From NCBI GenBank assembly GCA_016182555.1, contig JACPGJ010000004.1, positions 78,751 to 142,750 of the forward strand: a stretch of 64,000 nt of DNA, given 5' to 3'. The position numbers and the translations under genes were made by a program. The DNA comes from Candidatus Kerfeldbacteria bacterium (GTDB lineage Bacteria; Patescibacteriota; Patescibacteriia; UBA9570; XYC2-FULL-38-9). Under the pieces are notes generated by a model that was not told where the DNA came from, ran no database searches, and saw only the letters and a list, made by a program, of their open reading frames with translations. Positions 16,014 through 21,343 of this stretch are shown in pieces (position 1 is the stretch's first letter; each line of letters begins with the position of its first letter).

Positions 16014-16388
16014 ATTCGGCGGCGTACAACATAAAATATGTTTTCACGTAGCGCGCACCGAGTTTCTGGTGGCTCTTATTTTGCTGCCAGTAACACTGTT
16101 GGTTGTACAAGAACGAATACGGTGCCAATGACGATGGTCAATGTGAGAAAGAGTCCCACAAATTTCCATGCCACGGCGTACGTTTTCAATGTCTTCATAC
16201 GGACAAGTAAAAATATTCTCTAAAACAAATACGGTGTAGTAGTACAGTATACATCAATTTTCGCCAAACGCAAGTGATACCCACTACGCGTCGGGAATAT
16301 GCTATTAGTACTCCTCAGCTTCACCCCTTGCGGGGCTTCTACTTGGAGCCTATCAACCTGGTCGTCTTCCAGGAGCTTACGAAATCTA

Positions 16389-16433
<45 letters not shown>

Positions 16434-16564
16434 AACCGAAGGTCGCTACCCGGCAATGCAGCTGGTGCTACAACCGGTACACGAGAGCTTCGTCCTTTTC
16501 GGTCCTCTCGTACTAGAAAAGGATCCCCTCAAATTTCAACGCCCGCAACGGATAGGAGACCGAC

Positions 16565-17331
16565 ATTCTGTTACTTTGCTAACCACATCAAGTACGGTGA
16601 GTGCGCGGTGGTGGATTGATGCGAATCAATCTCTGCATGTCGCCATGCAGTTCGGACTATATCTTTATCGCAGTTATTACTGCGACGTTTCGCGTATAGT
16701 CTCTGAGGATTCTACGATACGTATCAGATCTTGTTGCGCAACCTTTCTTCGCTTACCAGAGTCGTTCATCTGATACGCTGTTGTGATAATGCCTTTTGCA
16801 CCAACACCAGTTTGGTGTTTCCCTTCATTCATCATGTGCACTACTTTTGCAAAGAATTGAAAATCCTTAGCTTTCATAGTACGTAATGAATACTGTTGAA
16901 AGAATGGAATGATGCGTTTGAGCAAATCATCACGATTGCGGACAACATACACGTATGTATGATCTGTTTTGCTTCCACGATGGTTGACTTTGATATATCC
17001 GCATTGAAAAAATTGTTGCAATTCTTCCAATACGATTTTTGATGGGGAATTTTGTGATACATGAAATTCCGGTATCACTTTCAATTGTGTTTTCATCCGT
17101 TCATCTTTATACAAAGCGATATGAAAACTTCCTTCTCCATCTACCAAACCAACGATATACCATGGATGCGGTAATCGTAGCCTTTCCTGCTGGTTGTCTG
17201 CACTCAACACATTTTCACTTGCCATAATTGAATTATAGCAGAGTAGTGTGAGATTCACGAGTCCTCTATTTCTCCAATAGGACTCTTCAGAGTTTCCAGC
17301 ATATAGCGAAATTTATAGACAGCACAAATCT
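16565..17331 (-). mobile_element. Putative group I intron in 23S domain V (near E. coli L2593) carrying a homing endonuclease ORF
   Basis: The conserved exon block GATAGGGACCGAACTGTCTCACGACG is split by about 767 bp. The flanks rejoin into canonical 23S sequence. Confidence 0.7.
16677..17258 (-). CDS. LAGLIDADG homing endonuclease (intron-encoded)
   Basis: YIVGLVDGEGSFHI motif. The ORF lies wholly inside the intron on the rRNA strand. Confidence 0.8.
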   Translation of the reverse strand: MNLTLLCYNSIMASENVLSADNQQERLRLPHPWYIVGLVDGEGSFHIALYKDERMKTQLKVIPEFHVSQNSPSKIVLEELQQFFQCGYIKVNHRGSKTDHTYVYVVRNRDDLLKRIIPFFQQYSLRTMKAKDFQFFAKVVHMMNEGKHQTGVGAKGIITTAYQMNDSGKRRKVAQQDLIRIVESSETIRETSQ

Positions 17332-17375
<44 letters not shown>

Positions 17376-17953
17376 TGGCGAACAGCCAAACCCTTGGGAG
17401 CTGCTTCACCCCCAGGATGCGACGGGCCGACATCGAGGTGCCGAACCTGGTCGTCTATGTGAGCTATTGGACCAGACTAGCCTGTTATCCCCGGAGTAAC
17501 TTTTATCCGATGAGCTTCCGCCGTCCTATTTCGTACGGTCGGATCACTAAGTCCTACTTTCGTAACTGCGCGACTTGTAGGTCTTGCAGTAAAGCTGGCT
17601 TGTGCCTTTACACTATCGGTTCGATTTCCATCCGAACCTAGCCAACCTTTGTGAACGCCTCCGTTACCTTTTAGGAGGCATCCGCCCCAGACAAACTACC
17701 CACCAGACACTGTCCCCTCGCCGGATTCACGGCTAAAGGTTAGATATATCAATCCGTCAGGGTGGTATCTCACTGGTGACTCTGGAAGCGCCGAAGCGCC
17801 CCTTCAAAGTCTCCCACCTATACTGAGCAAACAAATTCATATACCAATCCCAAGTTGTAGTTAAGCTTCACGGGGTCTTTTCGTCATGCTGCGGGTAGCC
17901 AGCATCTTTACTGGCCCTGGAATTTCGCCGAGTCCCTCGTTGAGACAGTTTTC

Positions 17954-18006
<53 letters not shown>

Positions 18007-18007
18007 C

Positions 18008-18264
18008 AAATATTACATCACATTTTTAATAAAATGTCAATGTCTTCTTTCGAAGCTGCATATCGCTATGCAGATTGGACTATATCTTCTCTAAATAATT
18101 AGAGTTTGGCGTGTAGTCTCTGAGGATTCTTGCTTTCAATCAAGAAAACAAGTCTTTCCTGCTGATTGTCTGCACTCGACGCATTGTCACTGATATAAAT
18201 CAGTAGCGCGAGATACACAGATATTCCAGCATATAGCCAAATTTTACTAAGGCAGCATTTTTCC
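18008..18264 (-). mobile_element. Putative ORF-less group I intron at 23S L1931-like site
   Basis: Interrupts GGAATTTCGCT|ACCTTAGGAC. Shares conserved core elements with the other two introns (CTGCATATCGCTATGCAGxTxGGACTxTATCTTC and TAGTCTCTGAGGATT). Confidence 0.55.
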
Positions 18265-18274
18265 ACCTTAGGAC

Positions 18275-19039
18275 GATTCGTATTGTTACTCTTTTGAGGA
18301 GTCTCCGCATAGTACTACGGAACTGCATATCGCTATGCAGGTCGGACTCTATCTTCTTCGTTCTCTTCTTTATGAAGAGCGATGTCTAACGTATTAGTCT
18401 CTGAGGATTTTCTTGGCAGAACTGTTCATAGTCCTGTAATGCATATTTCCGTGTTCTTCCTTTCCCTTCATTTAGCTTTTCTCGTAATTCCATAATCTGC
18501 TGCAAACCATCACGCTCAAGATGTCTCTTATTCGTAACGAGTTGTGCAATTTGTTTGAAGATCATGAAATTTCGTTGTTTTTTCTGAGAACAAAAAGTAA
18601 ATCGTTCAAAAAAAGGAATGACCCTTTCCGTGATCGAACGCGGATTCACAACGACGTAATAATATACGCCGTCTTTTCTTGATTGAAGACGCCCACACCC
18701 GAGCAATTTTTTAAATTGCGCAAGAATGTATTCTTCCTTTTGAGAAACATTAAAACATAATTCTGTTTGCCAACCTATTTGATGATCTGGTCGTTTACGT
18801 ATGGATACGTTAAAACTTCCTTCACCATCAGTAAAGCCTGCAAAATAATGTCCCTTCTCTGGAGGAATGGTCTTCAACCATTCTTCTATTGTTGGTTGCA
18901 TATGTTCAAGAATCTTTCCTGCGGATTGTCTGCTGCTCTGGCATAGAGCTGATCATTGATTTTTACTGCCGTTTCAAACGACGAGTACAACGATATTAAG
19001 CAGAGTTTCCCGCAAATAGTTAGATTTTATAACTACAAT
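18275..19039 (-). mobile_element. Putative group I intron at 23S L1921/1923-like site (helix 69/71 junction) carrying a homing endonuclease ORF
   Basis: Splits GGAC|CGTTTTTATAGTTATCGCC (E. coli GGACCGTTATAGTTACGGCC). Separated from the previous intron by an approximately 10-nt exon. Confidence 0.65.
18386..18901 (-). CDS. LAGLIDADG homing endonuclease (intron-encoded)
   Basis: FAGFTDGEGSFNVSI motif. Contained within the intron. Confidence 0.8.
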   Translation of the reverse strand: MQPTIEEWLKTIPPEKGHYFAGFTDGEGSFNVSIRKRPDHQIGWQTELCFNVSQKEEYILAQFKKLLGCGRLQSRKDGVYYYVVVNPRSITERVIPFFERFTFCSQKKQRNFMIFKQIAQLVTNKRHLERDGLQQIMELREKLNEGKGRTRKYALQDYEQFCQENPQRLIR

Positions 19040-20489
19040 CGTTTTTATAGTTATCGCCGGCGTTCATCCGCGCTTCAGTTGCAAGCTTCGCCCCGAAGGG
19101 CTAACCCGCTTCCTTAACGTTCGGACACTGGCCAGGCATCAGCCCCTATACTTCAGCTTACGCTTTCGCAGGGACCTGTGTTTTTGGTAAACAGTCGCTT
19201 GAAATCTTTTACTGCGGCCTTGATTGCTCAAGGCAGGCCTTATCCCGAAGTTACGGCCGTTGTTTTGCCGAGTTCCTAAACGAGGGTTCTCTCGTACGCC
19301 TGAGGATACTCTCCTCGCCCACCTGTGTTGGTTTACGGTACGGTTACCATAGATCACGCGTGCGCACCTTTTCTTGGCCCATTGTCAACCTGTCTTGAGC
19401 TTGGGTTTCCCCGTACTCTTGTCACACTGTTTTGCAACAGCGCAAATGCCCCAGTCCATGAGGGCACACACACCTTCAACATGCGTCAGTACGCACAAAT
19501 CTATGGTAGGGACGGAATATTAACCGTCTGTCCATCGACTACGCCTTTCGGCCTCGCCTTAGGACCGCCTAACCCTAGGTCGATCATCGTTGCCCAGGAA
19601 TCCTTGGGCTTACGGCGTCATTGATTCTCACAATGATTTTTGCTACTCATGCCGACATTTTCGCTTCGCTACGCTCCATCGGCCCTCACGGGTCCAACTT
19701 CATTGCGGTAGCAAATGCTCCTCTACCGATTGTTCATCATAAATGATGAAGCAATCCCACAGCTTCGGTACTCTGTTTAGCCCCGTTACATTTTCGGCGC
19801 AAAGTAACTCGACCAGTGAGCTATTACGCTTTCTTTAAAAGATGGCTGCTTCTAAGCCAACTTCCTGGTTGTTTGAGTCACGATACCACCTTTAACACTT
19901 AACAGAGTTTAGGGACCTTAGCTGGTGATCTGGGCTGTTTCCCTTTTGACGTGTGAAGCTTAGCCCCCACAGTCTGACTTCGATAATAGTCTCTTCCGGC
20001 ATTCGGAGTTTGGTTAGGCAGGATATCTTGCGACTCCAAGCCCATTCAGTGCTCTACCTCCGGAAGGTAGTTTATCAAGCTATCCCAAAAGATATTTCGA
20101 GGAGAACCAGCTATTTCCGAGTTCGATTACAATTTCTGCGCTAACCACAGCTCATCCCCAGGCGTTACACGACCTGTGGGTTCGGGCTTCCCCTACCTGT
20201 TACGGCAGGTTCACCCTGGCCATGGCTAGATCACTCGGTTTCGGGTCTATAACGAACGACAATAATTCTACTCAATACTGGTTTGCGGCAAAGCCGCACC
20301 CAGTATTAAATAGAAAATCGCGCTATTCACACTCGGTTTCCCTATGACTTCTCCCTATGCGGGATTAATCGTGCCGTTCGTAATAACTCGTCGGCTCATT
20401 CTTCAATAGGCACACCGTGACACAGCCTTGCGGCCGTGCTCCGATTTATTGTAAGCACATGGTTTCAAATACTATTTCACTCCCCTTCC

Positions 20490-20532
<43 letters not shown>

Positions 20533-21343
20533 ATCATTATACGTATTTAGCCTTACCGCATAGTCGCGGCAGATTCACATAGGATTTCTCGTGTCCCATG
20601 CTACTTGAGGACAGAAACCATAGAGTAAGTGTGCATTTCATGTACGGGGCTATCACCGTCTTTGGCTAGGCATTCCAGCCTATTCTATTACACACACTTC
20701 TTTTTTCTCTATCTCCGGTAAACCGGAACGTCTCTGCCTCGCAACCCCACAAATGATTTAAAAAATTACTCATGGTTTGGGCTTCTCCCCGTTCGTTCGC
20801 CACTACTAAGGGAATGCAATTGTTGTTTCTTTTCCACCAGGTACTAAGATGTTTCAGTTCCCTGGGTCTACTCCTATACGCCTATGTATTCAGCGCATGG
20901 TTCTGCAGGTGTACTGCAGAGGGTTGCCCCATTCGGATATTCCCGGATCAAAGCTTGCTTGTCAGCTCCCCGAGACTTTTCGCAGACTGCTACGTCCTTC
21001 ATCGTCGTATAATGTCAAGGTATCCACCATATGCTCTTACTTCCCGACGCAAAGTTGATACTCTTGCGTCTAATCATTGTAGTTGTATCAGTATCTTCGC
21101 ACAATTTGGATTCGACGAAATTTTGATGTTGTCCTCTATGCGCAGGATGGGGCATAGAGAACGTCTGTATCTTCTATATATATGGCGCATGGCGTTAATA
21201 TGCCCATATATCAATTGATGTCTTTGAGAATATTCACTTGTCAATGAACAGGTGTGCTGAAACGGTGACTAATACAGTATTTTCAGCACAGATCTACCGC
21301 TCGTTGTTTGCGTGGAGGCAGGTCTGCGATGAAAATGGGGCAC

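Follow-up and report, generated by a model that had tools for sequence, protein, structure and literature searches.

In the cyanobacterium Synechococcus sp. C9, the 23S rRNA gene carries group I introns at positions L1917, L1931, and L2593, all three containing endonuclease genes (Haugen et al. 2007, PMC1995217). IB4 introns occupy two of these sites, L1917 and L1931, in the plastid rrl gene of the diatom Navicula vanseea (PhytoKeys 2024, PMC11019260). In Coxiella burnetii, the intron sites are L1917 and L1951 (PMC1995217, PMC11019260), and a 2007 report, known here from its title as cited in PMC11270868, describes a 34-bp exon that lies between two self-splicing 23S introns. For bacteria of the Candidate Phyla Radiation (CPR), a survey (J Bacteriol 2024, PMC11270868) lists, in the passages drawn on here, positions 1917, 1931, 1952, 2593, 2604, and 2657 of the 23S rRNA as recurrent sites of LAGLIDADG_1 group I introns, describes multiple insertions in many rRNA genes, and states, citing Brown et al. 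2015, that the rRNA insertions of the CPR are excised from transcripts. [quoted passage not shown]

The locus analyzed here, in a 64-kb window (the whole stretch of DNA that was analyzed, 64,000 nt) from Candidatus Kerfeldbacteria, a member of the CPR, is a new instance of this described arrangement that differs in its ORF-less L1931 intron and in a third intron at Ec2604 (Ec, Escherichia coli numbering). In all likelihood, two independent mobile group I introns lie side by side in this gene, a LAGLIDADG-bearing one after U1917 and an ORF-less one after U1931, with a 14-nt exon divided between them. As in Synechococcus sp. C9, the same two sites are occupied, and hence the exon is the same 14-nt segment, Ec1918-1931; both genes also have a third intron in domain V, single-motif LAGLIDADG enzymes, and an L1917 ORF that begins in P6 and extends into the ribozyme core (PMC1995217). 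However, whereas endonuclease genes are present in all three introns of C9, the L1931 intron of the window consists of only 258 nt and lacks an ORF, and the third intron is inserted after Ec2604 in a CPR host rather than at 2593 in a cyanobacterium. The Navicula vanseea gene has the same pair of sites but is a diatom organellar gene in which both introns encode LAGLIDADG proteins. The Coxiella gene resembles the window in combining an L1917 intron with a second group I intron close downstream across a very short exon, but, as far as the cited title and site list go, its second site is L1951 and its exon is 34 nt long, compared to L1931 and 14 nt in the window. Unlike the organellar mini-exons, which are found mostly in mitochondrial protein-coding genes, the exon in the window belongs to a bacterial rRNA gene. 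All three sites in the window are on the list of the CPR survey, whereas the survey passages drawn on here contain no mapping of splice junctions, no guide pairings, and no mention of the 14-nt spacing (PMC11270868).

For position numbering, the unspliced gene was aligned with MAFFT to rrlH of E. coli K-12. Another E. coli record, a 2.9-kb "plasmid" annotated as 23S, was rejected as the reference; its start is unlike that of rrl and it gives wrong numbering. Compared to rrlH, the gene contains three large insertions, of 768, 258, and 768 nt (Table 1). In addition, it lacks the segments equivalent to Ec1536-1565, Ec1709-1731, and Ec2797-2816, and has small added segments, 66 nt after Ec284 and 45 nt after Ec655. 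The bacterial LSU model of Rfam (LSU_rRNA_bacteria, RF02541) matches 17297-21050, and the 3' part, beyond the third intron, reaches 16299; thus, because of the third intron, the whole-window Rfam match ended the gene at 17297, although its true end is at about 16299. The exons align over the full length of the model, and Rfam places a 5S gene downstream. The 64-kb window contains no 16S gene; the rRNA genes are thus not linked.

Table 1. Features of the 23S rRNA locus (positions counted from the first letter of the window; Ec, E. coli numbering)
Feature	Position	Strand	Basis and details
23S rRNA gene, unspliced, with three group I introns inside	16299..21050	-	Rfam RF02541 and alignment to E. 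coli rrlH
5' exon AACUAU (Ec1912-1917, helix 69 loop), ends with U1917	19047..19052	-	P1 5' strand of the L1917 intron
Group I intron L1917, 768 nt, last base G at 18279	18279..19046	-	Insertion after Ec1917
L1917 guide ACGAUU, P10 partner of micro-exon nt 1-6	19042..19037	-	Intron nt 5-10, directly 5' of the P1 guide
L1917 guide GUAGUU, P1 partner of AACUAU	19036..19031	-	Intron nt 11-16
Single-domain LAGLIDADG homing endonuclease gene, 171 aa, in the P6 loop	18386..18901	-	Pfam PF00961, E = 2.7e-20
Micro-exon AAUCGUCCUAAGGU, 14 nt, Ec1918-1931	18278..18265	-	rrlH alignment
ORF-less group I intron L1931, 258 nt, last base G at 18007	18007..18264	-	Insertion after Ec1931
L1931 guide UGCU, candidate P10 partner of AGCG	18257..18254	-	
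L1931 guide GCCUUAG, P1 partner of micro-exon nt 8-14	18253..18247	-	Intron nt 12-18
3' exon start AGCGAAAUUCCUUGUCG (Ec1932 onward)	17990..18006	-	
Third group I intron, 768 nt, after E. coli U2604	17331..16564	-	P1 AGACAGU/GCUGUCU; terminal G before UCGGUC
193-aa LAGLIDADG_1 gene of the third intron	ORF 16677-17258	-	

A preliminary description of this DNA had singled out the decamer ACCTTAGGAC at 18265-18274 of the plus strand (GUCCUAAGGU in the RNA sense), inside the minus-strand 23S gene, as a conserved segment of the helix 69-71 region left as a micro-exon with an adjacent 23S intron on either side, an ORF-less one of the L1931 type downstream and one with an endonuclease gene upstream. 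The rrlH alignment bears out the micro-exon, the 258-nt insertion after Ec1931 with its Rfam match confirms the downstream intron, and a PF00961 ORF lies in the upstream one. However, since the two insertions end at 18279 and start at 18264, the micro-exon spans 18278..18265, that is, 14 nt, four bases more than the approximately 10 nt that had been estimated; the outer limits of the pair are 18007..19046 rather than 18008-19039 (off by 1 and 7 nt); and the upstream intron, which had been likened to L1921/1923 introns, occupies L1917. Mapping the junctions on a 23S alignment, one of the checks that had been proposed, thus upheld the island itself but not its length or the upstream site.

The alignment can slide by up to 2 nt at the L1917 junction because intron 1 and the micro-exon both start with AA. 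The junction is nevertheless settled by the group I rule that U precedes the 5' splice site and that the intron ends in G, with which only the Ec1917 placement agrees, by homologous introns that start with G or T and show the same junction without ambiguity, and by helix 69, which requires U1920 and C1921 to be supplied by the micro-exon. Both introns of the pair keep the U at -1 and the terminal G. The 14-mer occurs once in the window and is matched in none of 100 shuffles.

The L1931 intron matches the Rfam group I model (Intron_gpI, RF00028) over its full length (1-253) with 76.3 bits, against a gathering score of 50. RNAalifold, applied to 14 homologues, independently arrived at the P1 of this intron (CUAAGGU/GCCUUAG; duplex energy -7.6 to -9.9 kcal/mol), which shows compensatory changes at three exon positions, for example, CUAUGGU paired with GCCAUAG, and UUAAAGU paired with GCUUUAG or GCUUUAA. 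The RNAalifold consensus of the 14 ORF-less homologues (alignment A3) contains P1, P3, P4, P5, P6, P8, and P9, with compensatory changes in 34 of the 47 pairs; P7, the pseudoknot partner (GACUA/UAGUC), was seen by eye only, and the candidate P10 amounts to 3-4 bp. Thus, by the covariance score, by a P1 with the U-G wobble and a terminal G, and by a covarying core, this insertion is a group I intron. The limits of the Rfam match, 18056-18297, were not accepted as splice sites, being at odds with both the E. coli alignment and the covarying P1: they overrun the micro-exon on the 5' side and end 49 nt before the 3' splice site. The nearest relative found of this particular intron is about 34% divergent; no close relative was found.

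The L1917 intron yields two split Intron_gpI matches that flank the ORF (25.3 and 17.3 bits), below the gathering score of 50, because the ORF of about 500 nt in P6 breaks up the match to the model; the low scores reflect a limit of the test and do not count against membership. The other features of a group I intron are in place: a P1 with the U-G wobble, a P10, a terminal G, and a covarying core. The RNAalifold consensus of 67 homologues, with the ORF removed, contains P1, P3 across the ORF, the P5 helices, P8, and P9, with compensatory changes in 26 of 37 pairs; P4, P6, and P7 are missing from this automatic fold and were assigned by eye via similarity to intron 2. P1 itself (AACUAU/GUAGUU, -2.8 kcal/mol) is invariant among 57 distinct loci and, as it never varies, is uninformative for covariation. 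P10 (AAUCGU/ACGAUU, -3.9 kcal/mol), by comparison, is 82.7% paired in the same 57 loci, with compensatory changes in three of its six pairs. In about one in ten of the homologous L1917 introns, the last base is A rather than the canonical G (for example, ...CAACAAUA followed by AAUCG); these are L007, L019, L023, L026, L029, L042, and L054 (column 28 of alignment A2, see below), and also L083 and L084, and sliding the junction in these introns yields no terminal G. The title of the Coxiella paper, as cited in PMC11270868, likewise mentions one element without a canonical omegaG.

The endonuclease encoded in the L1917 intron is 100% identical to an NCBI protein from a Candidatus Kerfeldbacteria metagenome-assembled genome (MAG) and has 1359 homologues at E <= 1e-10. 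With one PF00961 domain and an intact acidic motif (family motif GF.DGEGSF), it belongs to LAGLIDADG_1; within the motif, YFAGFTDGEGSF, residues D25, G26, E27, and G28 are invariant in 27 homologues. Its relatives in the PDB include I-SmaMI, the halves of I-OnuI, and I-CeuI. By reading the sequence, the last approximately 10 codons overlap P6', P7, and P3'. The enzyme is presumably active. In the CPR survey passages drawn on here, activity is demonstrated only for I-ShaI, a CPR enzyme of a different insertion site (PMC11270868); from the order of sites given there, we take its site, 23IS7, to be position 1931, so that it is not a member of the L1917 family.

The micro-exon is divided between the two ribozymes in a 6+1+7 pattern without overlap: nt 1-6 belong to P10 of the L1917 intron, nt 7 is unpaired, and nt 8-14 belong to P1 of the L1931 intron. 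The same segment serves the ribosome, with nt 3-7 (UCGUC) pairing with GGCGA (Ec1906-1910) to form the stem of helix 69 (-4.2 kcal/mol). In a fixed-register alignment (A2; 69 sequences including the window, 57 distinct rows), helix 69 is 100% paired in all 57 distinct loci, with compensatory changes in four of the five pairs, despite the intron of about 750 nt between its strands. The covariation score was reached in none of 500 shuffles, and slid registers were only 16-53% paired.

These pairings suggest how the exon would be used. AAUCGU (nt 1-6) would pair with the P10 guide and define the 3' splice site of the L1917 intron, and CUAAGGU (nt 8-14) would form P1 with the internal guide of the L1931 intron and define its 5' splice site at the U1931-G wobble. 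Upon completion of both ligations, nt 3-7 would pair with Ec1906-1910 and close helix 69, giving a spliced 23S rRNA with the order ...UAACUAU, AAUCGUCCUAAGGU, AGCGAAAUU. Because all recognition elements lie within the intron concerned or within 7 nt of exon, either intron could splice first, and the order of splicing is presumably free. Both introns probably splice in the organism from which the window comes, and, as stated earlier, two precise splicing events a few nucleotides apart are needed. Skipping of the micro-exon is disfavored because the P10 guide of the L1917 intron mismatches the exon after L1931 (-0.7 kcal/mol, against -3.9 kcal/mol with the micro-exon).

For the comparative survey, a profile of 27 endonuclease homologues (A1) retrieved 80 loci in species-representative genomes, of which 75 were analyzable. 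In each of the 75, an intron follows UAACUAU and is itself followed by AA, five further bases, and (C/U)(U/A)A.(G/A)GU. The L1917 intron is alone in 50 of these loci, where the 14-mer class adjoins AGCGAAAUUCC / AGCGAAAU directly, and the other 25 have a second insertion at L1931 after the 14-mer; 19 of these 25 insertions are shorter than 450 nt, too short for an endonuclease ORF. The closest relatives by the endonuclease, L083 (86% identity) and L084 (72%), have the L1917 intron and lack the L1931 intron, with AATCGTCCTAAGGT adjoining AGCGAAATTCC; in L085 (73%), the L1931 site holds an insertion of another kind. Scanning metagenomes for L1931 introns of the window's type gave at least 80 loci. 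Among the 80 matches listed, at least 57 lack the L1917 intron, as indicated by an uninterrupted UAACUAU(A/G)A... upstream; in at least 17 the L1917 intron is resolved upstream; at least four more end upstream like an L1917 intron, on contigs too short for confirmation; and two are unclear. Each intron therefore exists alone at these very junctions, and the pair is a frequent combination, seen in 25 of 75 loci from related genomes and, among the 80 metagenome matches listed, in about one in four. The preliminary description implied a rarity that is not borne out: this pair with its 14-nt spacing has been published (PMC1995217, PMC11019260) and is found in a quarter to a third of the related loci.

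A rule of one endonuclease per pair showed no clear pattern, with all four combinations of ORF-containing and ORF-less introns represented among the metagenome doubles listed. As to whether the two introns travel together, a Mantel test of intron 1 versus intron 2 distances across 14 double loci gave a weak and technically unreliable signal: r was 0.30, and the partial r controlling for exon distance was 0.25, with implausibly high exon distances (0.25-0.39) that probably reflect an alignment disturbed by other insertions.

That the two introns and the sequence between them constitute one composite, twintron-like element (19046..18007) that is excised whole, with the 14-mer being intron sequence that happens to resemble rRNA, is suggested by the mere 14 nt between the introns and by the Rfam match to intron 2 (18056-18297), which crosses the island into intron 1. 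The overhang of that match is, however, a low-confidence alignment of the 5' end of the model that disagrees with the covarying P1, and the region contains two complete sets of core helices. Excision of all 1040 nt would also take out Ec1918-1931 and thereby the 3' strand of helix 69, which covaries perfectly with the 5' strand upstream, and the upstream P10 guide is unfit for the far exon. Single-unit excision is further disfavored because each intron occurs alone at its own site in many genomes and the closest endonuclease relatives have no L1931 intron. We consider such an element very improbable. The term twintron, which implies that no exon lies between the introns, does not fit either: 14 nt of genuine rRNA, covarying with helix 69, separate them. 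Thus, as far as can be judged from sequence, neither of the findings named earlier as contrary to two separate introns, namely, excision of 18008-19039 as a single unit and a mature 23S rRNA devoid of the decamer, appears to apply.

Another way to account for the locus is that one or both introns are no longer spliced and are either retained in the rRNA or cut by RNase to leave a fragmented 23S rRNA. The ORF has been lost from intron 2, and an L1931 intron of Simkania has been reported as unspliced, according to a title cited in PMC11270868. Against this, removal of rRNA insertions from CPR transcripts is reported in the same source (PMC11270868), and the U at -1 and the terminal G are intact in both introns of the window. 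Moreover, in both intron families compensatory changes maintain the pairing of the guides and core helices, which indicates selection for ribozyme function. Helix 69 forms an intersubunit bridge, and retention of more than 1 kb within it would be difficult to accommodate. Loss of splicing is, therefore, quite unlikely. An assembly artefact or a pseudogene copy of 23S might also be suspected, given that the source is a MAG and that rRNA regions are prone to mis-assembly. But the same architecture and junctions recur in dozens of independent assemblies, including records labeled "complete genome" or "chromosome", the exons span the full bacterial LSU model with 5S downstream, and the contig is 146,769 bp long, so that we regard an artefact as extremely improbable.

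Two separately spliced introns on either side of a genuine exon thus remain the preferred reading of the locus. It could be extended to propose that the 14-nt spacing is near a functional minimum (a 6-bp P10, one spacer nucleotide, and a 7-bp P1), such that the two ribozymes would dock on neighboring helices, perhaps stacked coaxially, and their splicing would be coupled or ordered, with the closure of helix 69 as a late checkpoint of large-subunit assembly; or else that the ORF-less L1931 intron spreads by co-conversion with homing of the L1917 endonuclease 14 bp away. We deem these extensions unlikely.

As a discovery, the locus is of small value, being one more intron-rich CPR 23S gene with a pair of intron sites that is already in the literature. 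Its 6+1+7 exon partition, with the covariation behind it, offers a compact test system for the splicing of closely spaced group I introns. In addition, because automatic rRNA and intron callers mis-place boundaries (here, Rfam shortened the 23S gene at the third intron, and its match to intron 2 crossed the micro-exon), correct junctions are needed for the annotation and phylogeny of CPR rRNA.

Several of the surveyed loci have peculiarities of their own. A second, unrelated class of insertions occupies L1931 in L003, L007 (from the other Kerfeldbacteria genome), L024, L040, L076, and L085; their 5' end differs, a GCCUUAG guide is absent within 35 nt, and the terminal G is often missing. In L039 (2583-3609), the arrangement is reversed relative to the window: it is the L1917 intron (237 nt) that lacks an ORF, and the endonuclease, a homologue of the window's L1917 enzyme with 59% identity, is encoded in a 775-nt L1931 intron. 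This suggests either that endonuclease genes move between neighboring introns or that the site assignment of L039 needs checking. Two metagenome loci, L109 and L162, show the L1931 guide pattern, and upstream of CUAAGGU their sequence fits neither the surroundings of helix 69 nor the end of an L1917 intron (for example, ...GUCUAUGUUC followed by CUAAGGU); these contigs, which are short upstream, could have an intron inserted elsewhere close by and a still shorter exon. Finally, endonuclease-bearing 23S contigs are present in MAGs labeled as Bathyarchaeia, Pseudomonadales, Bdellovibrionales, Gammaproteobacteria, Planctomycetia, Rickettsiales, or Woeseiaceae (L008, L011, L014, L024, L026, L027, L038, L040, and L041). 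The junction sequences of L008 (Bathyarchaeia) are identical to those of L009 (Moranbacteria), and at least some of these short, oddly labeled contigs are probably mis-binned CPR sequence.
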